From: an uncultured Bacilli bacterium
GTDB taxonomy: Bacteria > Bacillota_I > Bacilli_A > RF39 > UBA660
Assembly (NCBI GenBank): GCA_949505625.1
Contig: CATBQD010000005.1
Span: 3,046-67,045 of the forward strand
Direction: 5' to 3'
DNA length: 64,000 bases
Of this stretch, positions 242-41,900 are shown in pieces. Position numbers and translations under genes: made by a program. Position 1 is the stretch's first letter, and every line of letters begins with the position of its first letter. The notes beneath the pieces are model-generated. The model ran no database searches, had not been told where the DNA came from, and worked only from the letters and a program-made list of their open reading frames with translations.

Positions 242-1390
242 TTAATTGGAGAAAAGAACATGTTCTGATTTATATTGTTTGATAATAATTCCAAGAACAA
301 CAATAATAATTGCAATTGTTGATAAAAGCATTAAGAAAATTTGTAAATAATTAATTGTTCCAGCTGTAATATCTGTAAATAAAAGTGTGAAATTTAAAAA
401 TGGAACAAGTGATAATACAGTTGATGACTCAATATTAATCATAAATGCTATCATTCCTGGAAAGAATGAAACAAAAGTAAGAGGTGTCAAAGCACTTTGG
501 GCTTCTTTAAAAGTTTTAGAACGACTTGCTATTGCAATACATAATCCACTAATTAAGAAAGAATATGCAATAATTACAATACAAGCAAATAAAGTACTTT
601 CTAATGATAACATTAAGTTAATGCCTTCATATATTTGAAACATATTATTTGCCACCATTAAAGAAATAATTGTTAGTATCAAACTTATTGCCCCTGTAAT
701 AATAGAAGATAAACTAACACTTAAAAATTTTCCAATAATAATATCTTTACTTCTAATTGGAAAAGTAAGTAGAGTTTCCAAAGTTCCTCTTTCTTTTTCC
801 CCAGCTGTTGCATCTGTTGCTGGATAAGTAGCCGAAACTGTAATCGCCATAATGATAAATAAGAAAGCATAATTAATAATATAGCTTGCATAGAAATTTT
901 CTACTTCTTTAATACTTTTTTCTACAGTAATGATAGAAATCACATCTTCTGGTTTCATATTGTTTTCTTCTAAAAATTCCTTTTGTAGATATTCCTTGTA
1001 AGAAGCAAAGAAGCTGTCCATTAATGAAGTAGCATAGCTAGTTGTCTCATTATCATCTCCATGAATAATATATTTATTATCTTCTTTAATGACATATAAA
1101 TCAATGGTCCTTTTTTCATATGCTTGTTTTAATTCTTCTTGTCCCATTGTTGTTACTTGTATTTGTAATTCTTTTGCAATTTCTTTTTCTACATCAGATA
1201 ATTCATAAGAAAACCCAATTTTATTATATTCTTCTACTGATTTATTGACTTGCGATTCAAATAAAGCAGACATTCCAATTACTAATAATGGAATCATAAT
1301 TGGAATAATTAACATCATTGATAATGATTTTTTATCACGAAACATTTCCCGAATTTCTTTTTTTAACATATTCCATAAATTATTCTTCAT
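242..1390 (-). CDS. ABC transporter permease, ABC-2 type (N-terminal TM, large extracytoplasmic loop, C-terminal TM bundle)
   Basis: 382-aa ORF, hydropathy pattern typical of ABC-2 permeases; overlaps ATPase gene by 11 nt (operon). Confidence 0.75.
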   Translation of the reverse strand: MKNNLWNMLKKEIREMFRDKKSLSMMLIIPIMIPLLVIGMSALFESQVNKSVEEYNKIGFSYELSDVEKEIAKELQIQVTTMGQEELKQAYEKRTIDLYVIKEDNKYIIHGDDNETTSYATSLMDSFFASYKEYLQKEFLEENNMKPEDVISIITVEKSIKEVENFYASYIINYAFLFIIMAITVSATYPATDATAGEKERGTLETLLTFPIRSKDIIIGKFLSVSLSSIITGAISLILTIISLMVANNMFQIYEGINLMLSLESTLFACIVIIAYSFLISGLCIAIASRSKTFKEAQSALTPLTFVSFFPGMIAFMINIESSTVLSLVPFLNFTLLFTDITAGTINYLQIFLMLLSTIAIIIVVLGIIIKQYKSEHVLFSN

Positions 1391-2138
1391 CAGTCTTACC
1401 TCCTATTAAAGCAAAGAAAGCATCTCTTAAATTTGTTGTCTTTGTCTCTTTTTTGATTGTTTCTGGAGTTCCCTCTTTTATAATAATTCCCTTATTTATC
1501 ATGACAACATAGTCACATATATTTTCTGCTTCTTCCATATAATGAGTAGAATAAAGAATCGTTTTTCCTCTCTTTTTTTCCTCTTTCATAAAGTCTAGTA
1601 TGACTTGACTAGAAATAATGTCTAAACCACTTGTCGCTTCATCTAAAATATAATATTTTGGGTCATGCATTAAACATCGTGCAATATTTACTCTTTGTGT
1701 TTGACCAGTTGACAAGTTTGCAATTCGATTATAAAGAAAGCTGTCCATGTTTAAAGTTTCTGATACTTCCTTTATTCTATTATCAATTGTTTCTTTTTTT
1801 ACTTCATAAATTTCAGCACACATTTTTAAAAGTTCATAAGTAGATAAAGTATTATAAATCTTAGTGTTACCAGATAAATATGCAATGTTTTTCTTTATCT
1901 CAATCTCGTTTTTTGAATAATTTAAATTGTCAAATTCGATTGTTCCTGAGGTTGGTTCTAAAATTCCTGCAATCATACGAAGCAATGTTGTTTTCCCAGC
2001 TCCATTTGGACCTAAAACTCCAATGATTTCTCCTTCTTTTGCTTCAAATGAAATTCCATTATCTGCATAAAATTCCTCTTTTTGTTTTTTTGAATTATAA
2101 CGTATAAATTTCTTTTTTAAATCCTTTACTTTAAGCAT
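1380..2138 (-). CDS. ABC transporter ATP-binding protein
   Basis: Walker A GPNGAGKTT, ABC signature LSTGQTQRV, Walker B ILDEATSGLD. Confidence 0.9.
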   Translation of the reverse strand: MLKVKDLKKKFIRYNSKKQKEEFYADNGISFEAKEGEIIGVLGPNGAGKTTLLRMIAGILEPTSGTIEFDNLNYSKNEIEIKKNIAYLSGNTKIYNTLSTYELLKMCAEIYEVKKETIDNRIKEVSETLNMDSFLYNRIANLSTGQTQRVNIARCLMHDPKYYILDEATSGLDIISSQVILDFMKEEKKRGKTILYSTHYMEEAENICDYVVMINKGIIIKEGTPETIKKETKTTNLRDAFFALIGGKTDEE

Positions 2139-2246: not shown

Positions 2247-2855
2247 CTATTTTTTTATCAATTTTTTAAAACTTAAATATTCACTTTTGTACCAATCTGC
2301 AAAAATATCTGTAGCAGATGTATGGTCATCGTTTCTATCTTTTCGTTCTTCGTCTGACATTTCTGCTAAGGTTTTATCACAATTTTTAGGAATAAATACA
2401 CACCACAAATTTGATTTTGCTTTTCTGATATCGTTTCCTCTTCTTGATAATGATAAAGTTCCCTCACTTATTCCATAAAAGGTATAGAACTCTCTACCAT
2501 CATAAAATGTCAAGCAATCTAAAAATCTACAAGTGCGATTTTGAACATTTTTCATTACCTCAAGAAGGTCATCTATATCATTTGCTACTCCACTTCTTTT
2601 TACGAATGCCCCAGGATAGCCTGGATTATTTGGATAATCTTCTATATAAAATCCTGTATCCGCAACAAAGCATGGTGTTCCTAAAATTTTATACGCCTCT
2701 AATGCTTTTTGCTTTGATATTCTTTCTATATCGTTTATTTCTGGTTCCATAAATTCATATTCTAAAAATTCTAAATCAATTTGTTTTTCTGCAAAATGTT
2801 CTTTGACAGAAATATATTTTCCATAGTTTCCTGTGACATAAGTTAGATTTGCCAT
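2247..2855 (-). CDS. divergent Ham1/RdgB-family (ITPase-like non-canonical NTP pyrophosphatase fold) protein
   Basis: N-terminal TGNYGKY..VKEHF matches the Ham1 TGNxGKxxE motif. VADTGFYIE and PGYPGAF resemble RdgB DDSG and PG.YSAR. C-terminal DEERKDRNDDHT resembles EK..SHR. Several catalytic positions are diverged. Start codon is 4 nt after the stop of the upstream gene. Confidence 0.5.
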   Translation of the reverse strand: MANLTYVTGNYGKYISVKEHFAEKQIDLEFLEYEFMEPEINDIERISKQKALEAYKILGTPCFVADTGFYIEDYPNNPGYPGAFVKRSGVANDIDDLLEVMKNVQNRTCRFLDCLTFYDGREFYTFYGISEGTLSLSRRGNDIRKAKSNLWCVFIPKNCDKTLAEMSDEERKDRNDDHTSATDIFADWYKSEYLSFKKLIKK

Positions 2856-2856
2856 T

Positions 2857-3888
2857 TTACATTACTCCTTTAAATTTATATAGTTTTTTTATAACATTTT
2901 CATTATATTCTGGTCTTGTTAAATCCATATTTTTATCATCTGCAATTCTTTTTGATAAATAATACATTTGAGCCATTAAATAGTATTCTTTCCAAAAATA
3001 ATCATCATCCATCTCTTTAGAATCAAACACATATATATTAGGATACTCCCCTTTTAGAGACCCAATTAATGTCTTATCCAACTCACTCATTGCGTGTGAT
3101 AAATATAGCATGTGACTTTCTGGATTCCTAAATAATAAATTACTTCTTCCATGACAATATGACCCCTTATCATGAACAACTACAGGGCATACTCCTGATT
3201 CTATAAGATTGGATTCTAATACACTACTAGAACATTTTGTATCATAGCCACTCATTATTTGAACCAAATTAGTATCTGTAAAACTTTTATCCAATTTCTC
3301 AATTTTTCTAGCGCTTAATTCTAACAATCTTTTTATCTTATCATTCATTGCTTTTACTTCTTTTGAAGTCATATCTTTTTCTAATAAAGTAGCAGCAGAT
3401 AAAAGAAGGGCAATAGGTCCCAAACTAGTGGCAAGAGAAATAAAACTTTTTTCTCTTTCGTACAAATAATTTCCCCACGCAATCACTTTATAATCCACTT
3501 CTTTTTCTTTCTCACAAATCAAACATTTATTGCCTTTAAAATCGTTTAACGCTTCTTTAACCCCATTCGTATTTCCACTAGCTGATATTACTATCAAATT
3601 AGAAAATATATTTTTATTGGCTTTATAAAAGTAATCTCTAGGTTCGATTACTTCACAAAACAGTCCATTTGTTCCTATTCTTTCTAATATTCCCTGTAAA
3701 TAATAAGCAATCACTTTTGATCCACCAGTTGCCATAATTAAAGTTGGCTTATTTATTGTTAATAATTCATATAGTAATCTTCTAATTTCATTTGCTTTAT
3801 TAATTTCAGGATCATTAATAGAAAGAATCCTATTTTCTAATTTTGAAAAATTAATTTCTGCTTTTTCTGTATGTGTATGCTGAATCAT
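2857..3888 (-). CDS. SIS-domain (phosphosugar-binding fold) protein with uncharacterised ~190-aa C-terminal domain
   Basis: ATGGSKVIAYY (GxGxS) and LIVISASGNTNGV (SIS S-x-SG-T motif); strong RBS AAGGGAGG; translationally coupled to the downstream Ham1-like gene. Confidence 0.4.
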   Translation of the reverse strand: MIQHTHTEKAEINFSKLENRILSINDPEINKANEIRRLLYELLTINKPTLIMATGGSKVIAYYLQGILERIGTNGLFCEVIEPRDYFYKANKNIFSNLIVISASGNTNGVKEALNDFKGNKCLICEKEKEVDYKVIAWGNYLYEREKSFISLATSLGPIALLLSAATLLEKDMTSKEVKAMNDKIKRLLELSARKIEKLDKSFTDTNLVQIMSGYDTKCSSSVLESNLIESGVCPVVVHDKGSYCHGRSNLLFRNPESHMLYLSHAMSELDKTLIGSLKGEYPNIYVFDSKEMDDDYFWKEYYLMAQMYYLSKRIADDKNMDLTRPEYNENVIKKLYKFKGVM

Positions 3889-3943
3889 AAAAAAACCTCC
3901 CTTTGTTAATTCAATATTAACATTAGTAGAGGAAGTATTTATG

Positions 3944-4423
3944 TCAGTTATAAAAGTTTTCTAATAAATTTATATATTTTATCCGATTAATGTAAAAATG
4001 TCTTATTTCATCTTTTGCTTCACAATAAGCAGCTACACCCCATTCATTTCCTAATAATATTAAATCATAAGGATGAATTGTCCTTTTAGAAAGGACTTTT
4101 TTATCTTTTGAATAATATTCTATAAAACATTTTCTTTTCTCTTTCATAGCACGATTTATTAAATTTAAGAAGTCTTTATTTATGACATTAATCGTATTTG
4201 GAGTAATAAATCGCTTTGGAACATTTATATTTTGGTTTAAAACATAGCCTCCATATGGGCCCTTTATTGTATCAATATAAATTCCTGCTTTTTCTATTTC
4301 ATCTTTATATACACGAATCATTCTAGGAGATACTTCTAATTTTTCTGATAACTCTGCTATACTATATTTTTTACCTGAACTTAAACATTCAATCATTGTT
4401 AATATATTACTAACCTTAGACAT
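3944..4423 (-). CDS. HTH + WYL-domain transcriptional regulator
   Basis: N-terminal HTH_11-like region ending in the GPYGGYVL signature; C-terminal WYL-like block EWGVAAYCEAKDEIRHFYINRIKYINLLE. Confidence 0.65.
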   Translation of the reverse strand: MSKVSNILTMIECLSSGKKYSIAELSEKLEVSPRMIRVYKDEIEKAGIYIDTIKGPYGGYVLNQNINVPKRFITPNTINVINKDFLNLINRAMKEKRKCFIEYYSKDKKVLSKRTIHPYDLILLGNEWGVAAYCEAKDEIRHFYINRIKYINLLENFYN

Positions 4424-4663
4424 ATAGCACCTCCTAAATTTAATACAATTTATTATAACATAAATTTAATATATCAATATAATTTATTTTTTTGAAATGC
4501 CTTATGAATAAATTTCTAGTTTATTACAAATATCACTAACTCCAAAAACAGAGTCAACACATATAACAAGTTTTCTTAATGTGGATTCCATCTTGATTAT
4601 ATCATTCATTATTATCATATACTTTAAAACATATAAAAATTCGATATTTAAAAGGATCAATTT

Positions 4664-4878
4664 TTCTATCAGCAACTAGTGTGAGTAATAACCATATTTG
4701 CATCTTTTAAAAAACAAAAAATCAACAATCTATTTTTAGAAAGTTGATTTTGTTTTTAAATTCAAATCATTTTTAAGAGTCCAAATGGATTTCCTTCTAG
4801 TGCTCAAAAGGTAAAAGTACGACAATTCTTTGAATCAAAGAAATAGTGAGTAATAAGCTTAACTAATGAAACTATAAC
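4664..4878. repeat. ~210-nt repeat copy R1 (3' element of the GluRS-family gene); contains a bidirectional terminator hairpin AAAATCAAC-N16-GTTGATTTT
   Basis: ~85% identical to 6922..7138, aligned by eye; begins 10 nt after the aaRS stop codon. Confidence 0.6.
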
Positions 4879-4887
4879 ATAATTTAA

Positions 4888-6525
4888 TTAGTTAAAATAG
4901 TCAAATCTAGATTTTATTCTATCTTTTCCTAATAATTTCATTATTTCATATAAATCTGGAGTCATAGACTTAGTAGTTAAAGCAACTCTAATAACCATAC
5001 TAACATCTACAATACTTCCTTTATATTTATCAGAATTATCTTTATAATCTTTTGTATTAGAAGCATACCCTAACTCATCAGATAATGATTTCATTTTTGC
5101 AAACCACATATCTTTATCATCACTAATATTATAATATTTATTAATATAAACATCTAATATATTTTTTATTTCATCTGTATTAGTTATATTTTGCCATTCA
5201 TAATTATTTTCATCATCAAACAACTCATCATACATATACCAAATATAGGATTTAATTTCAGAATAACAACTAAAATCTTTTCTTGGCTTTTTTTGTTCTC
5301 TCTCTATATTTAATATTTCTATAGTATAATCTTTATATTTGGTAATAAGAGTTGCAAAGCTCTTATCAAATTCATTAGCCCATACTAATAAATTATCATA
5401 TACTTCTTTGGCTGATAATCTTGACAAATAATTTTTAGAAATATTAATTACCTTTTCTAGATCAAATATAGGTCCACTTTTGCTCATCTTATTAAACGTA
5501 AAAGTAAAATTTCTATAAGATATATTTGAATTTTGTAAAAACCAACCCTCGAAATTAGAATTCATTATAGTTGCAAAATATAATTTAATTGCCTCTACTG
5601 GAATTCCCTTTTCGTGATAAAACGACACTGCTGCTTCTGGATCTTTTCTTTTACTTATCTTTCTTATCGTATTTCCTTCTTTAATATTTAGTGGAAGTAA
5701 ATGTGCAAATTTTGGTGCTTTAAATCCACAAGCCTCCCATAATTCCAAGTGATATGGTACTGATGATATATATGAATCATCTCTAGTCACAGTAGTAACT
5801 CTCATAAAATGATCATCACATACATGGGCTAAAGCATAAGGAGGAATTCCATCTGACTTAATTAAAACTTGGTCTATATCATTTTCAGGCAATTCAATAA
5901 TACCTTTTACTAAATCTTTAAATACTATTTTCTTGTTGAAATCTCCTAATGATTTTAATCTCAATACCCATTTATCACCATTATCAATATGATTTTTCAC
6001 TTCATCATAACTTAAATTTCTACATTTAGCATAATGACCATAATAACCAATTCTATCTTTTCTTTTTTCTTGCTTTTCTCTCATCTCGGCTAAATCATTT
6101 TCAGAGCAAAAGCAAGGGTATGCTCTTCCTATTGATACTAGATATTTAGCAACTATATGATAAATCTCTTCTCTTTGAGTTTGAATATATGGTCCATAGT
6201 TTCCGCCTTTAATTGGGTGTTCATTAACTATATAATTATAATTTTCTAAATCTTCAATAATTAGTTGAGTTCCATTTTCGATCGCTCTTTTATTGTCAGT
6301 ATCTTCAATTCTTAACATAAATATTCCGTTAGTTTGATTGGCAATAACCTCTGGAATAAATGATGCATATAAATTTCCCATATGCATTCTCCCAGTAGGG
6401 CTGGGCGCAAATCTGCACACTTCAGCACCATCAACCAAATTTCTTGGTGAGTACATTTTTTCCAAATCTTCAATTGTTTTTGTAATATTTGGATATAATA
6501 AATCCGCTAAATCGTTACTTGTCAT
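4888..6525 (-). CDS. gltX: class I aminoacyl-tRNA synthetase, GluRS family (divergent; RFAPSPTG and RIEDTDNKR GluRS signatures but HxGN and KMSKS motifs like class-I LysRS)
   Basis: Motifs CRFAPSPTGRMHMGNL, LRIEDTDNKR and KMSKSGP. The ORF-finder start at 6567 lies inside the leader terminator; the likely true start is the MTSNDL Met at 6525, preceded by an AGGAAAGGAAAGG RBS. Confidence 0.7.
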   Translation of the reverse strand: MTSNDLADLLYPNITKTIEDLEKMYSPRNLVDGAEVCRFAPSPTGRMHMGNLYASFIPEVIANQTNGIFMLRIEDTDNKRAIENGTQLIIEDLENYNYIVNEHPIKGGNYGPYIQTQREEIYHIVAKYLVSIGRAYPCFCSENDLAEMREKQEKRKDRIGYYGHYAKCRNLSYDEVKNHIDNGDKWVLRLKSLGDFNKKIVFKDLVKGIIELPENDIDQVLIKSDGIPPYALAHVCDDHFMRVTTVTRDDSYISSVPYHLELWEACGFKAPKFAHLLPLNIKEGNTIRKISKRKDPEAAVSFYHEKGIPVEAIKLYFATIMNSNFEGWFLQNSNISYRNFTFTFNKMSKSGPIFDLEKVINISKNYLSRLSAKEVYDNLLVWANEFDKSFATLITKYKDYTIEILNIEREQKKPRKDFSCYSEIKSYIWYMYDELFDDENNYEWQNITNTDEIKNILDVYINKYYNISDDKDMWFAKMKSLSDELGYASNTKDYKDNSDKYKGSIVDVSMVIRVALTTKSMTPDLYEIMKLLGKDRIKSRFDYFN

Positions 6526-6527
6526 TT

Positions 6528-6790
6528 TGACCTTTCCTTTCCTAAATAAAAAAATAGATTCATCCAATAAGGACGAATCTATCGTGGTACCACCTTAATT
6601 TATATAACTTTAAAGTTATATATCTCAACATCTTAACGCGATTAACGAAATAACTTGAATACGCTATTTGGCTCCAAAGCTTCTTTCAAACATTTCAAAT
6701 GTTAATTTCCACCAACCATTAACTCTCTTTGCATTGAAAATATTTTACTCTTCTTCTTCATTGCTTTCATAATATGTGCTAATTTTATCA
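6528..6790 (-). promoter_or_regulatory. T-box leader (tRNA-sensing riboswitch) with terminator/antiterminator
   Basis: minus-strand RNA carries AAUUAAGGUGGUACCACG (T-box consensus AAUUAGGGUGGUACCGCG), followed by hairpin GAUAGAUUCGUCC-UUAUU-GGAUGAAUCUAUU and a U7 run directly before the RBS. Stem-I-like AGAGAG and GGUGGAA elements lie upstream. The specifier is ambiguous (GAAAGAAG could read as Glu GAA or Lys AAG). Confidence 0.6.
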
Positions 6791-6896: not shown

Positions 6897-7138
6897 ATTA
6901 CTCTTGAATGAAAAGTTCGAGTTTCCTATCGACCAGTTGTGAGTAATAACCACATTTGCATCTTTTAAAAAGCAAAAAATCAACAATCTATTTTTAGAAA
7001 GTTGATTTTGTTTTTAAATTCAAACCATTTTTGAGAGTCCGAATAGATTTCCTTCTGGTGCCCTTTGGGAGGACGTACAACAACTCCTAGGGAAAAATAA
7101 ATAGTCAGTAATAATTCATTAACTGACTATAGTATATC
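6897..7138. repeat. repeat copy R2 (3' element of lysK) plus a 38-nt motif shared with the tRNA-Thr-like flank; includes the lysK terminator hairpin ATAGTCAGT-N12-ACTGACTAT and the bidirectional AAAATCAAC/GTTGATTTT hairpin
   Basis: aligned by eye to 4664..4878; first 38 nt (6897..6935) also match 10650..10688. Confidence 0.6.
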
Positions 7139-7163
7139 ATTTTTTGCATTAAAATCATAGTAA

Positions 7164-8717
7164 TCATAATAAATTTTTGATTTTTTCTTTATCTATTGCC
7201 ATTAAAAATAATCCTAATTTTGGTCCTTGATCAGTACCTAATAACATATTGTATAATATTTGAAAATATCTTTTTTGTGCTTGTTTTAATTCTTTATCAA
7301 CTAAAATCTCATCTTTCACAACATCATACAATGCTGTTTGTAATTCATTTGTAGTATTAAATTGGAAATCTAACAATTTAATAGTTTTATTTAACCATTC
7401 TTTTTCTAAATCACTTATTGTATTATAAAAATTATCATTTCTTTGATTTAATAGATTTACTTGATAATCAGAACCATATTCTTTAACCCAATTTATAGCT
7501 AGATCTAATCTATTACTAAATTGTTCAGAATTAACATCAATATCTTCTTTAGATAATAATTCTTTTAATAAATCAATATCAAAATTCACAATAGGAAGAA
7601 ATGTTACTAAATAACTAAAATTAGGATTTTTTAAATATTCTTCTTTTACATTTGTTAAATCTAAAATACTTTTGTTTTTTTCATCAATGTTATCATTAAA
7701 GTATAATTTTACCCATCTATCAAATTCACTATAATATCTAATAACATCATTATCAAGAGCAATATCAAATGCATGCATATTGTCAAATCTTGCATAAAAC
7801 CACCAAATAATATTTTTATCATATACTTTTAATAAATCTGTTATTGTTAAAACATTGCCTGTAGATGATGACATTTTAGCACCGCCACCTTTTATCCCTA
7901 TAAAATTATATGGGATATAAATAGGTGGTTCATAATTAAATATCTCTCTTGCAACTCTTTCAGATACTGCTTTACTACCATTCGAAGCAGAATGATCAAT
8001 GCCACCAGTTTCAAAAGTTACTCCTTCTACCATCCAGCGCATTGGCCAATCAACTTTCCATTGAAGTTTAATATTAGTAGCATTATTAATATTTAAATCA
8101 CCTCTATGTCCACAATTACACATATATTTAACATTACCAGAATCAGATTCGTAATTTATTATTTTTGTTGAATCTTTGTGACAATTAGGACAATAAATAC
8201 TTATAGGATAATAATTTCTTCTTTCTTCATCAGTAGATTCTTGAGTTCTAAAATCATCTATAATACTGAAAATTTTATCTCTATTATCCATTGCAACTTT
8301 AATATATTTATTATATCTACCACTTTGATACTCTTTTGCTTGATATATGCATTCTACTTCAACATCCATTGATTTTAATTCATTTAAAAATCGATTTTCC
8401 ATATAAGATGCATATGATTCATTTTCACTAAATGGACTAGGTAATTCAGTATAAGGCATACCAATATATTTTTCATAACTTGAGTCGATATTTCCAGGGA
8501 CCTTTCTAAATCTATCAAATTCATCAAAAGATAAAATATATCTTACTTTCTTTCCTAACTTTTTTAACTCTTTTGCAACAAGATATGGAGTAGCAATTTC
8601 TCTAAAATTTCCAATATGTACAAAACCACTTGGACTTACACCACTAGCTACCGTATAAACTTCTTCATTTGGTCTCTCATTAATAATTTTTAGTGCAACT
8701 TCTTTTGCCCAATTCAT
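7164..8717 (-). CDS. lysK: lysyl-tRNA synthetase, class I (LysRS-I)
   Basis: SGVSPSGFVHIGNFREI (class-I LysRS HxGN), FDEFDRFRKVP, KMSSSTGN; 517 aa. Confidence 0.85.
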   Translation of the reverse strand: MNWAKEVALKIINERPNEEVYTVASGVSPSGFVHIGNFREIATPYLVAKELKKLGKKVRYILSFDEFDRFRKVPGNIDSSYEKYIGMPYTELPSPFSENESYASYMENRFLNELKSMDVEVECIYQAKEYQSGRYNKYIKVAMDNRDKIFSIIDDFRTQESTDEERRNYYPISIYCPNCHKDSTKIINYESDSGNVKYMCNCGHRGDLNINNATNIKLQWKVDWPMRWMVEGVTFETGGIDHSASNGSKAVSERVAREIFNYEPPIYIPYNFIGIKGGGAKMSSSTGNVLTITDLLKVYDKNIIWWFYARFDNMHAFDIALDNDVIRYYSEFDRWVKLYFNDNIDEKNKSILDLTNVKEEYLKNPNFSYLVTFLPIVNFDIDLLKELLSKEDIDVNSEQFSNRLDLAINWVKEYGSDYQVNLLNQRNDNFYNTISDLEKEWLNKTIKLLDFQFNTTNELQTALYDVVKDEILVDKELKQAQKRYFQILYNMLLGTDQGPKLGLFLMAIDKEKIKNLL

Positions 8718-9077: not shown

Positions 9078-10025
9078 TTATTCACATTTTTTATTACTTT
9101 TGTATTCATCAATGTAAACTTGACTTACATATTCAATTGCTATATCACTATATTTGTTAATTGTGTTTTTTGAATATGAGAATTGGTAACAATAATCTTG
9201 ATTATTTTTAATTCCTTTTCGTTTACAAATATCTTGAAATTTATTTGGTGTAAAACCATGATTCGGTCCAAGTGATAATTCTAACGTTTCTTTTATTTTC
9301 TTTACAACATCATTTGTTGTATAAGGGTGAGTTTTTTCAATATCTTTTGGAACATTAATTATAGTTGCTCGTTCGCCACCATCTTTTACAATTGTAAATT
9401 TAATATCAGCTTCTGCTTCTTTTTTAGTAGAAACTAACCTTAAAGTTTGACTTAGCGATTCATCTGAATCTAATTCCTTTTTAATTTTTTCTAGCATAAG
9501 TAAATTATTAGGATTTAATATTAAAGAAGAAACATCTTTATCATTTCCCGGATTAACTAATGCGATATATGGTGTAACCTTTTCATTTAAGTTATATTCT
9601 GTAAAATGTTTTTTGAAAAACTTATTATAGTTTGTTAAACATCTTTGAAAAGCAGGAGATAATATATAATCATATTCTGGTAAAATTAAATGAGTCGCTT
9701 TATTTCTTATATTTCTAATAAAAGAAATATTATTTTTTGTTTTATCTGTTGTACTTGTAAACACTTTTTCTACACACTCATCTAATCCAATTGTTCTATT
9801 TGAATCATCTTTATAATTAATAACATTTATATCTTTAGCTTTATTAATTAAATATGCCTTTAATAATAACTCCCACGCATTACATATAAAGAAGCAAAAA
9901 CCTTCAGTTCTATAGTTGATAGTTGGTTTATTTATTATTTCGATTGACATTAAATATGCTTCTTCTGATTTGTTTAATAAAGCATTAATATAATTATTTA
10001 ATTCATCAGTTGTCATGAATATCAT
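9078..10025 (-). CDS. HEPN-domain protein (Rx4H motif), abortive-infection/toxin-like
   Basis: ISFIRNIRNKATHL contains R-x4-H; helical N-terminal NAWELLLKAYL typical of Abi-type HEPN proteins; 315 aa. Confidence 0.45.
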   Translation of the reverse strand: MIFMTTDELNNYINALLNKSEEAYLMSIEIINKPTINYRTEGFCFFICNAWELLLKAYLINKAKDINVINYKDDSNRTIGLDECVEKVFTSTTDKTKNNISFIRNIRNKATHLILPEYDYILSPAFQRCLTNYNKFFKKHFTEYNLNEKVTPYIALVNPGNDKDVSSLILNPNNLLMLEKIKKELDSDESLSQTLRLVSTKKEAEADIKFTIVKDGGERATIINVPKDIEKTHPYTTNDVVKKIKETLELSLGPNHGFTPNKFQDICKRKGIKNNQDYCYQFSYSKNTINKYSDIAIEYVSQVYIDEYKSNKKCE

Positions 10026-40644: not shown

Positions 40645-41250
40645 TTATTTTTTAGGATTGTAAAACAGTGATATCACTTTCGAAAATTCAAATAAAATAA
40701 TATTACTTTTGTTCACTGCAAAGCCTTTTCCCATTGCTTTCCCACCTATTGTTAGTGCTGCAATTAATGCAGTTACTATCAAGCTGACTAACAATGTATC
40801 TAAATTTAAGGAGTTTGATATAGTAATTGATAAAATAGCGCCTGTGGAACCCGATATGATTCCACAAATGTCTCCTATTACATCATTGCAAAAAGAGGAA
40901 ACCTTATCTGCACTTTTTTTAAATTTTACAGCTACTTTAGCACCTCTTACTTTTCTAGCAGCCATTGAATGAAAAGGAATTTCATCGGCAGCCGTTACTG
41001 CTACTCCCACCATATCAAATAAAATTCCTATTCCTATGAATAAAATTAATATAATAATTCCTATCCAAAGATTCACTTTAGGCATAACCGTTTCAGAAAG
41101 TGACGAAAATACAATGGACAATGTAAAAGCAATTATCGATATTTTCAAAATCCAATTATAATCAACCAGTTTTTTTTCCTTTTTATTTTTTTTGTTTTTA
41201 TTTAATTCATCAATATATTTTCCCATTATACACCTCATAAAAATATACAA
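40645..41250 (-). CDS. small 4-TM membrane protein with DxxxD motif (OapA-like candidate)
   Basis: four hydrophobic helices, NDVIGDICG (DxxxD); directly downstream, on the same strand, of the GC-rich non-coding region. Confidence 0.4.
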   Translation of the reverse strand: MYIFMRCIMGKYIDELNKNKKNKKEKKLVDYNWILKISIIAFTLSIVFSSLSETVMPKVNLWIGIIILILFIGIGILFDMVGVAVTAADEIPFHSMAARKVRGAKVAVKFKKSADKVSSFCNDVIGDICGIISGSTGAILSITISNSLNLDTLLVSLIVTALIAALTIGGKAMGKGFAVNKSNIILFEFSKVISLFYNPKK

Positions 41251-41289
41251 AAAAAATGGCTATTTATATAGTAAACTTTACGTCTTAAG

Positions 41290-41900
41290 GTCAAGTAGGA
41301 TTTCCCTTACTTCAAACTCTTTCGTTACCAAAAGAGGGGTTCCCCATTATAGAAGTAAATATATCGTCACCGAATATATGACTTGATTGCCACTGAGTAC
41401 GCACTGCAATCCTATATAAATAGACACTCTAGGAGATTTCCTCGACAACTCTGTTTATTATTAGTTCCTTTTTGCAAGTATTGTTTCATATTGCAATCAT
41501 TTTAGTTGGTTGGCCAATCAACTAAAAGTCGTTCAATAATCCCCAAATACTCACTCAGGACAAGCTACACTACTCGTAACTTATCATCACATAGTAGGTT
41601 CAATCCTAAGTCGTCATTTCTCCATCAACTTAACGTGTATAGGGAAATAACAAGATTAGGTCTCCAAGATAGATGGGTCAGATCCTGTATGCCATTACAG
41701 TTGCCCAGCTATCCATACCTCCCAGCACTCACCCCAAACTGGGCGTAAGAAGCAAGCACCAGAAGTTTCACAGATATGCTCTTTAGTGACTTTTTAGGGC
41801 CACCTTCATAATAAACGAAATTGACTAGAATAATGTGCCATTTCAATTTACATTTCAACATTCTACCATATTTAAAATAGAATGTCAAATTGTTCAATCA
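41290..41900 (-). ncRNA. candidate large structured ncRNA (OLE-RNA-like, ~610 nt); strand inferred from the downstream gene
   Basis: ~640 nt without protein-like ORFs, local GC ~42-45% against ~27% background, many local inverted repeats; only S/R-rich junk ORFs. Confidence 0.35.

Follow-up and report, generated by a model that had tools for sequence, protein, structure and literature searches.

What three tightly packed genes encode, and whether they act together, is the question raised by the minus strand of a 64,000-nucleotide stretch of DNA from an uncultured Bacilli bacterium (contig CATBQD010000005.1 of assembly GCA_949505625.1; the whole stretch is referred to below as the window). An initial annotation, made from the sequence alone, had described a compact, translationally coupled module of a WYL-type regulator, a SIS-domain protein and a divergent Ham1-like protein, and this description was borne out by the open reading frames (ORFs), by the spacing of the two enzyme genes and by recurrence of the arrangement elsewhere. 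The operon of which the window was found to hold one copy is self-contained and horizontally mobile, and it consists of a promoter, the WYL gene, a structured RNA, the SIS gene and the Ham1-like gene. The RNA, which fills the spacer between the WYL and SIS genes and went unremarked in the initial annotation, is a new cis-regulatory element supported by covariation. With regard to function, we tentatively favour a tightly repressed, mobile two-enzyme module that acts on a non-canonical nucleotide in defence or conflict.

A recurrent, mobile three-gene cassette

The three genes follow one another on the minus strand of the window and encode a minimal helix-turn-helix (HTH)-WYL regulator of 159 amino acids (aa; positions 3944-4423), a 343-aa double-SIS enzyme of the GlmS-isomerase/NagB-II/FrlB-FraB group (2857-3888), and a 202-aa divergent nucleotide pyrophosphatase-like protein of the Ham1/inosine triphosphate pyrophosphatase (ITPase) fold (2247-2855). 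A single nucleotide separates the SIS stop codon from the Ham1 start codon (TAA-a-ATG). Related loci were surveyed by ORF calling, hidden Markov models and clustering, combined with neighbourhood look-ups and a scan of species-representative genomes, which gave 218 genomes, nearly all of them metagenome-assembled genomes (MAGs) of uncultured gut 'Bacilli/Tenericutes' (for example, Clostridium sp. CAG:628). Both the SIS and the Ham1-like proteins had hundreds of full-length, unnamed homologs. The trio recurred with the same order and spacing in approximately 70 of 93 independent loci, an arrangement therefore far beyond chance; the WYL gene lay about 55 nt upstream of the SIS gene across loci, and in approximately 70 loci the Ham1 gene started 1-2 nt past the SIS stop codon or overlapped it.

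Only these three genes were conserved in the 93 loci (SIS in 92, WYL in 80 and Ham1 in 74), the next most frequent flanking family being present in 10. With flanks that varied in this way, the SIS and Ham1-like genes did not form part of a conserved core operon; constant occurrence in core metabolic operons was what the initial annotation had named as refuting its reading. The 147 immediate neighbours matched 147 different Pfam families; recurrent among them were NUDIX (7), RhuM/PDC-S05 (4-5), ThsB-TIR (3), nSTAND3 (3), type I S subunits (2), PDC-S13 (2), Mob_Pre (2) and dCMP deaminase (2), and second neighbours added SecA anchors and 5-hydroxymethyldeoxyuridine (5-hmdU)-kinase-like, HD, resolvase and Bro-N genes. 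NUDIX-box genes, from several unrelated families, made up 11 of 958 flanking genes, and 7 of these 11 were directly adjacent to the cassette. In a relative of 78% identity (L095-97), NT5C and small MazG genes lay directly upstream of the WYL gene. More generally, such 'house-cleaning' genes (NT5C with small MazG, NUDIX) adjoined the cassette more often than they occurred elsewhere in the flanks (L095:6533-7417; L065, L068, L070, L090, L080, L020 and L049).

The cassette is mobile between uncultured gut Bacilli. One identical SIS protein was found in at least three different contexts, and in at least 10 loci the trio was the terminal cargo of an element with a serine recombinase and Mob_Pre, in which its neighbours were either a DUF5677/peptidase gene or a ThsB-TIR pair. 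The backbone of this integrative mobilizable element (seen in L001-L006, L015, L019, L020, L024 and L045; for example, L001:1380-6424) consisted of a small ORF, a 617-aa serine recombinase and a Mob_Pre relaxase, with variable cargo just before the cassette, namely a DUF5677 plus Peptidase_C15 protein, or a 196-aa protein plus a ThsB-like TIR. Carriage by phages or plasmids was considered and rejected, no relatives of the cassette being found in IMG/VR, among INPHARED phages or among PLSDB plasmids. About six or seven copies of the cassette looked degraded in the MAG assemblies.

Within the window's own lineage the context of the cassette was fixed, and a relative of 98% identity (L094) had a different upstream gene. 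Comparison with this relative placed the upstream edge of cassette homology at position 4487, 64 nt before the WYL start codon. The leader between this edge and the gene (4424-4487, minus strand) contained an extended -10 element (TG at 4460-4459, TATAAT at 4457-4452) and a ribosome-binding site (AGGAGG at 4435-4430). In many loci TGnTATAAT and the leader were kept approximately 30 nt before the WYL ATG, and the sequence further upstream diverged. The cassette thus owns a promoter-like leader and has sharp boundaries, the promoter being assigned by consensus.

Five architectures were found, all with the WYL gene directly upstream (as it also was of the SIS gene in 80 of the 93 loci). Apart from the order WYL, SIS, Ham1 of the window and about 70 other loci, the WYL gene was followed by a fusion with Ham1 N-terminal to SIS (P0270 and P0332; the Ham1 part of P0270 was clearly of the same subfamily as the cassette protein), by a PfkB-SIS fusion of 640-717 aa, by a SIS protein with a fused 120-aa N-terminal domain, or by SIS on its own (in one case with an AAA_15/21 ATPase encoded upstream). 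The invariant core of the cassette consists of WYL and double-SIS, and Ham1 is the commonest of several partners; the functional pairing of SIS and Ham1-like proteins, as suggested initially, is strengthened by their natural fusions. The proteins accompanying SIS in Ham1-less variants were considered as cryptic Ham1 relatives and rejected, as they had no Pfam domains, were unrelated to each other and were not Ham1. The 248-aa AAA_15/AAA_21-type ATPase encoded directly upstream of WYL-SIS in one Ham1-less lineage (L010:5586-6332; also L011 and L012) may be an alternative partner, and a third kind of partner domain may be represented by the conserved N-terminal extension of approximately 110-140 aa (motif ...EYI.WL..F...) in a branch of SIS proteins (P0412-P0414, P0261, P0263 and P0280; L104:862-2148), for which Pfam gave no match.

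A structured RNA between the regulator and enzyme genes

The spacer between the WYL and SIS genes was more conserved than the proteins themselves. Across loci it started with a box, TGACATATATATT, at the WYL stop codon, followed by a hairpin of 12-17 bp in which a pyrimidine-rich 5' arm pairs with the Shine-Dalgarno (SD) sequence of the SIS gene, and by a run of four to seven U on the 3' side. The window copy of the box (TGACATAAATACTT, 3946-3933) overlaps the WYL stop codon; the hairpin occupies 3932-3896 on the minus strand, its 3' arm holding the SD sequence GGGAGG (3901-3896), and is followed by seven U (3895-3889) and the SIS ATG (3888-3886). Folding of the window spacer gave -14.2 kcal/mol (z=-3.0). 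For 60 distinct loci the median z was -3.5, with 13% G.U pairs, and the sense strand folded more stably than the antisense strand in 56 of the 60 (p=2e-10).

RNAalifold applied to a MAFFT alignment of the spacers gave no structure, the 3' arms of variable length having been misaligned, and the structure was derived from per-sequence folds and an Infernal alignment. In the latter, 84.6% of cells were paired, versus 41-69% with slid partners. Compensatory changes were present in 13 of 17 pairs and in 63 cells, relative to 22±3.6 in shuffled alignments, none of 500 shuffles reaching as high a number. A covariance model (R1) searched against 1.12 Mb of sequence gave one strong match per locus, always at the WYL-SIS junction, and in the window it matched 3885-3947 (minus strand) with 55 bits. 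The element was seen at the same junction in approximately 70 loci (for example, L001:6941-7004), and it also preceded PfkB-SIS, N-extended SIS, Ham1-SIS and Ham1-less genes. Rfam contained no match to it, either at the gathering threshold or at E<=1.

Judged from its sequence, the spacer has the geometry of a putative intrinsic terminator that would also occlude the SIS ribosome-binding site, and because of this the hairpin should hold the enzymes low relative to the regulator. The conserved box was also considered as a shared operator for the WYL protein and rejected in that role, since a position weight matrix applied to WYL promoter regions found nothing better than shuffles did.

The encoded proteins and their relatives

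The assignment of the 159-aa protein as an HTH+WYL regulator was upheld by Pfam (HTH_11, E=3.7e-8; WYL, E=2.3e-15), and the PADLOC WYL model matched with 95 bits. The closest solved structures were CapW, PafC and BrxR, at 30 bits or less and with only the WYL domain covered. All three are proteins of approximately 300 aa with an extra C-terminal domain. The cassette shares with BrxR, CapW, PafBC and DriD the presence of an HTH and WYL protein directly upstream of presumed target genes, together with a weak similarity of its WYL domain to those of CapW, PafC and BrxR. However, whereas these regulators are about 300 aa long, the cassette protein ends after the WYL domain, leaving no room for a C-terminal WCX-type domain, and it does not have the BrxR/CapW-type organization (HTH, WYL and C-terminal WCX in 290-320 aa). 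It is also coupled, unlike BrxR, CapW, PafBC and DriD, to a conserved SD-sequestering, terminator-like RNA hairpin; to our knowledge, no such hairpin has been described for these systems.

The 343-aa protein alone was matched by Pfam SIS (PF01380) at 12.6 bits (E=0.12), below the cutoff of 25. Of 53 full-length family members, 12 were matched by the same model at E<=0.01 (3e-10 for the best), and relatives with the PfkB-SIS fusion scored 26.6-32.9 bits, above the cutoff. Matches to NCBIfam PGI/PMI models were weak and below all equivalog cutoffs. A homolog search against 1.8 billion representatives recovered approximately 200 clusters at 50% identity, and the family profile matched structures in the PDB over both halves of the protein (2aml at 1e-6, 3odp, 3eua, 1j5x/8eol and GlmS isomerase domains). 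An AlphaFold2 model built from a mixed alignment of close and distant relatives had a predicted local distance difference test (pLDDT) score of 89.6 and a predicted template modelling (TM) score of 0.90. Its top 50 Foldseek matches in the PDB (14-17% identity, TM up to 0.74, E down to 1e-14) comprised only GlmS-isomerase, NagB-II deaminase, FrlB/FraB deglycase or AgaS-like proteins. Structure modelling, which had been suggested for both enzymes, thus placed this protein in the double-SIS group and the Ham1-like protein in the ITPase fold. The SIS domain seen initially in the N-terminal half is confirmed by the family profile and the model; the C-terminal half, which had been left unassigned, is instead a second SIS subdomain carrying the catalytic Glu and His.

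Residues invariant or nearly so in the family were G55-G56-S57, S102/S104/T107, E146, S148, P158, E230, K241 and H246-G247, from which a putative active site of S57, S102, S104, T107, E230 and H246 can be drawn. In GlmS homologs and the FrlB/FraB deglycases, the catalytic Glu is separated from the catalytic His by exactly 16 positions, and S46/S91/S93/T96 are shared as well (PMC10285752); E230 and H246 of the SIS protein show the same distance of 16, all six positions having the same spacings as S46/S91/S93/T96/E224/H240 of FrlB. In FraB, E214 acts as general base and H230 as general acid, and the site is closed by a flexible C-terminal tail; the tail of the SIS family is strictly conserved (KKLYKFKGxM). 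Given the fold, the profile matches and the full FrlB/GlmS residue set with identical spacings, the 343-aa protein is a complete double-SIS enzyme, probably active and of the kind that handles amino- or keto-sugar phosphates. A cryptic SIR2 domain, that is, a KomC analogue with GAGxS-like and HG motifs, was considered and rejected, as profile and fold searches gave only double-SIS enzymes.

The likeness to FrlB/FraB, NagB-II, AgaS and GlmS thus covers the two-subdomain fold, the Ser/Ser-x-Ser-x-x-Thr phosphate site with its Glu-His pair and the flexible tail, and the fusion of distant SIS-family members to a PfkB kinase recalls kinase-plus-deglycase pathways. Differences from these enzymes are the low identity, the lack of a Pfam-level match for the window protein, the pairing with an ITPase-fold protein and a WYL regulator, and the mobility of the cassette and its confinement to uncultured gut Bacilli. 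Neither a dedicated transporter nor a PfkB-type kinase gene, as found in FrlB/FraB operons, was present in the cassette or its consistent neighbours, no catabolic operon surrounds it, and the PfkB domain was fused only in distant SIS relatives.

The 202-aa protein was matched by Pfam Ham1p_like (PF01725) at 74 bits (E=1.9e-20; cutoff 22.5) but fell far short of all NCBIfam RdgB/ITPase equivalog cutoffs (TIGR00042, 76.3 versus 145.35; PRK14821, 84.3 versus 203). Its AlphaFold2 model (pLDDT 90.5) was closest to the archaeal NTPases MJ0226 and PH1917 (TM 0.78-0.87), followed by Plasmodium Ham1 and KomB (TM 0.76/0.84, 25-28% identity) and then by human ITPA and bacterial RdgB. T8-G9-N10-x-x-K13, E37, K50 and D66-T67-G68 were kept, and N10, K13, E37, K50 and D66 were invariant in 42 homologs. 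HMMER alignments placed D66 opposite the Asp of PH1917 and MJ0226 and opposite H65 of KomB. The segment that reads (E/D)D(S/T)G in canonical enzymes and VEHTG in KomB is VADTG here, with Ala in place of the first acidic residue, while FGYDP is replaced by an invariant A-K-S-N-L-W (KSNLW-V) and SHR by D-x-HTSAT. The protein consequently resembles RdgB, ITPA, MJ0226 and PH1917 in its fold, in the T-G-N-x-x-K motif, in the Mg/phosphate Glu and Lys and in the catalytic Asp, and differs from them in the Ala substitution, the family-specific motifs, the operonic association with SIS and WYL genes and the missed equivalog cutoffs.

That the protein is not a housekeeping ITPase, as the initial annotation had concluded, agrees with these scores and with the loss of FGYDP and SHR. 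The accompanying statement that its catalytic positions are replaced was right with regard to the retained TGNYGK motif, the VADTG segment and the changed FGYDP and SHR motifs, and went too far with regard to the catalytic Asp, D66 being invariant; by alignment, it is mainly the base-recognition motifs that differ. Since catalytic and phosphate-binding residues are kept and base-recognition motifs are replaced, we infer that the protein may be an active pyrophosphatase with a ligand other than inosine or deoxyinosine triphosphate ((d)ITP) or xanthosine triphosphate (XTP).

The closest described defence system is Kongming, in which KomA is an adenosine deaminase, KomB a HAM1-like sensor that binds dITP and KomC a SIR2 effector. 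KomB has His65 in place of the catalytic Asp, a substitution which is held to make it inactive and which is the defining feature of 'defensive HAM1', and all defensive HAM1 clades have been reported to be tied to SIR2 KomC. KomB and KomC are adjacent, co-evolve and are sometimes fused, and Kongming-type modules without KomA associate with 5'-nucleotidases and NTPases. The cassette is similar in that a HAM1 protein of archaeal/eukaryotic-like subtype, structurally close to KomB, adjoins, is co-inherited with and is sometimes fused to a Rossmann-like partner enzyme, in variable, defence-like contexts with nucleotide-metabolising genes nearby. In contrast to KomB, however, the Ham1-like protein retains the catalytic Asp, and the dITP contacts of KomB (F140, Q141, W142, H11 and R8, aligning with N149, L150, W151, G12 and G9) are not conserved. 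The partner is a double-SIS protein, with no SIR2 among its structural matches; there is no adenosine deaminase, and a WYL regulator together with an RNA hairpin provides the control.

PADLOC, the use of which had been suggested to detect a defence system, did not point to one for either enzyme: PADLOC-DB v2.0.0 gave no match for the Ham1-like protein and noise (E ~0.01) for the SIS protein, only the WYL protein matching generic WYL models. In the literature, no description was found of WYL+SIS, Ham1+SIS, or an ITPase with a phosphosugar isomerase in a defence context, and public sources name the homologs only as 'hypothetical protein'. The cassette is not Kongming, not a canonical RdgB and not a Frl/Fra-type catabolic operon, and it matches no described system.

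Candidate functions and neighbouring elements

Translational coupling and natural fusions link the two enzymes functionally, and both are probably active; they may act on a non-canonical nucleotide or phospho-amino-sugar, either in succession or as one complex. In the mechanism that we propose, the WYL protein, as a sensor of a ligand or of nucleic acid, and the SD-sequestering hairpin would keep the enzymes off or at a very low level until a trigger is received. The Ham1-like protein would then hydrolyse a non-canonical purine-like (d)NTP (other than one of hypoxanthine or xanthine) to the monophosphate, and the SIS enzyme, in complex with it, might open, isomerise, deglycate or deaminate the phospho-(amino)sugar moiety of the product or of a linked metabolite; in the PfkB fusions, the kinase and not a pyrophosphatase would supply the monophosphorylated substrate to the SIS domain. 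These two steps are suggested by what Ham1 (from NTP to NMP) and PfkB would have in common, each supplying the phosphate-binding site of SIS with a monophosphorylated ligand. The role would be a conditionally useful accessory function in nucleotide-centred conflict, most likely directed against phages or mobile genetic elements by destruction or conversion of nucleotides. A role in conflict or defence is favoured because of context and architecture, on which this reading rests: the mobile context is variable and partly defence-like, a WYL regulator and a repression design are present, some copies decay, partners are swapped, and there is kinship with the HAM1 subtype of KomB.

Several observations weigh against a defensive role. 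PADLOC gave no match for either enzyme, and the neighbour counts, in which housekeeping genes are numerous, come without a matched genomic background. A single group of uncultured gut Bacilli (the 218 species genomes) accounts for the whole family, and this narrow host range could equally fit a lineage-specific physiological need. Some of the apparent pseudogenes may be errors of MAG assembly. Ham1 is missing from approximately 12 of 80 species loci, so the core does not depend on it. The Amadori-type chemistry of GlmS/FrlB enzymes is not open to a canonical N9-glycosidic nucleotide, which makes the link between the two reactions conjecture. Finally, intact catalytic sites and NUDIX, MazG and NT5C neighbours fit sanitation of the nucleotide pool equally well.

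The last point leads to the explanation that we consider unlikely but the strongest of the rivals, namely that the cassette controls damage to nucleotides or metabolites. The Ham1-like protein would clear a damaged or glycated purine NTP, the SIS enzyme would deglycate or isomerise a phospho-sugar adduct (for example, a 6-phosphofructosamine on the exocyclic amine, or a ring-opened ribosylamine nucleotide), and the WYL protein would induce both upon DNA or nucleotide stress, as do PafBC and DriD, which are WYL regulators. The catalytic sets of both enzymes are complete, PafC is roughly as near to the WYL domain as CapW and BrxR are, and the neighbours are enriched in house-cleaning genes (the seven adjacent NUDIX genes, MazG with NT5C, HD and dCMP deaminase). 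FrlB/FraB deglycases act after a PfkB-type kinase, and PfkB-SIS fusions occur in the family; since the cassette has no transporter, its substrate is probably intracellular. Repair genes would, however, be expected to be inherited vertically with stable synteny, whereas here the flanks vary, the cassette travels on mobilizable elements with TIR-type cargo and several copies are decaying. The strong double repression by hairpin and regulator suggests costly products, and the chemistry is speculative, as we know of no glycated-nucleotide deglycase of this kind.

A further rival is a Kongming-like sensor-effector pair, in which the Ham1-like protein is a nucleotide receptor that switches on a SIS effector, and the effector depletes an essential sugar phosphate (glucosamine 6-phosphate or fructose 6-phosphate) in abortive infection. 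The model of the Ham1-like protein resembles KomB almost as closely as it does true ITPases, KomB-KomC show the same adjacency, co-evolution and occasional fusion, the 5'-nucleotidases and NTPases of KomA-less modules recall the NT5C, MazG and NUDIX neighbours, and swapping of partner domains is typical of defence systems. We nevertheless regard this as distinctly unlikely: the His-for-Asp mark is missing and D66 is invariant, the dITP-contacting residues are lost, defensive HAM1 clades are reported to be tied to SIR2 KomC whereas the SIS partner has no resemblance to SIR2, and a sensor role is difficult to reconcile with a PfkB fusion. Very unlikely is a role in breaking down or detoxifying an amino-sugar, Amadori or nucleoside compound that is taken up from outside and abundant in the gut (such as a fructosamine or an amino-sugar nucleoside antibiotic), with SIS as deglycase or deaminase and Ham1 or PfkB adjusting the phosphorylation state. 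Its appeal lies in the gut habitat of the hosts, in catabolic enzymes (FrlB/FraB/NagB-II/AgaS) being the nearest structural relatives and in PfkB-SIS fusions mirroring kinase-plus-deglycase pathways; yet no transporter, phosphotransferase system or further catabolic gene lies in or consistently beside the cassette, the adjacent ABC (ATP-binding cassette) exporter of the window is not conserved with it, a WYL regulator with an SD-sequestering terminator is unusual for sugar catabolism, and Ham1 has no role in known Amadori pathways. Chance proximity of ordinary housekeeping genes, a canonical RdgB ITPase and a known sugar-phosphate isomerase, could be argued from the Pfam Ham1 assignment and the weak NCBIfam matches to XTP/dITP diphosphatase and PGI/PMI models. 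It is extremely improbable and already contradicted by scores far below all equivalog cutoffs, by the replaced base-recognition motifs and by the trio itself, which recurs as one block in variable flanks, forms fusions and has a regulator of its own and an RNA element.

If the favoured reading of a repressed two-enzyme defence module is true, nucleotide-based immunity gains an active ITPase-fold enzyme that works with a sugar-phosphate isomerase or deglycase, and conflict systems would have taken up the HAM1 fold on at least two occasions, once as the dead sensor of Kongming and once, in the cassette, as an enzyme that is probably live. It is possible, if doubtful, that the cassette defines a new family of nucleotide-directed immune (or repair) modules, in which a minimal WYL protein and an RNA switch gate a catalytically active ITPase-fold enzyme physically coupled to a GlmS/FrlB-type enzyme, with an exchangeable feeder domain (Ham1, PfkB or the N-terminal domain without assignment). 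The pair would then remove or convert a nucleotide that is specific to phages or serves as a signal, or deglycate a damaged one. As an immune module it would contain the first SIS-domain effector in bacterial immunity and put the HAM1 fold to a second use, by a mechanism distinct from that of Kongming; as a repair module it would give sugar-adducted or ring-opened nucleotides a first candidate for their enzymatic processing. In both cases, a widespread protein family, whose unnamed homologs number hundreds across gut metagenomes of humans and animals, acquires a clear active site, a modular architecture that yields testable substrate hypotheses, and a new covariation-supported cis-regulatory RNA that always lies between the WYL and enzyme genes, in uncultured gut Bacilli with reduced genomes, about whose accessory biology next to nothing is known.

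The initial annotation had also placed the module between an ABC transporter and an aminoacyl-tRNA synthetase (aaRS) paralog. Comparison of flanks showed that these neighbours are not functionally linked to it: approximately 50 orthologous ABC pairs elsewhere never had the cassette adjacent, and aaRS genes (near the cassette in the window, L094, L013/L091, L006 and L010) made up about 1-1.5% of neighbours, which is about the genomic background, so that their proximity is due to chance. The ABC-2 type ATPase and permease pair downstream of the cassette in the window (242-2138) has its own promoter, and orthologs of 62-80% identity were found in many different contexts on other gut metagenome contigs; the pair behaves like a small movable two-gene unit. 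On the other side of the cassette, a gene of glutamyl-tRNA synthetase (GluRS) type (4888-6567) lies behind a T-box leader (6566-6770, 121.7 bits) and next to a class I (archaeal-type) lysyl-tRNA synthetase gene (7164-8717). Gene callers start the former at Met15 (545 aa), and its score of 276.7 is slightly below the bacterial GluRS equivalog cutoff of 289.95. The gene is probably the housekeeping copy and not a paralog.

A dispersed intergenic repeat of approximately 180-235 nt, ending in a terminator hairpin, was present on both sides of the GluRS gene (4649-4882 and 6907-7140) and is probably what 'repeat-flanked' in the initial annotation referred to. It was also found at cassette edges in other loci (L094:1706-1937, L026:9749-9853, L048:4181-4257 and L020:9648-9747) and contained a weak PyrG-leader-like Rfam match (E=0.11); it could serve as a substrate for recombination or represent a small element of mobile or terminator type. 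A 315-aa ORF approximately 5 kb upstream of the cassette (9078-10025, minus strand), annotated in identical contigs as DUF3644 plus EC042_2821 (a restriction-endonuclease-like, conflict-associated domain), may be a separate defence-type gene. Elsewhere in the window, which is AT-rich (approximately 27% GC), a full-length ornate large extremophilic (OLE) RNA was found at 41240-41857 on the minus strand (419 bits), and together with the T-box and two tRNAs it identifies the window as chromosomal DNA of an anaerobic Firmicute.

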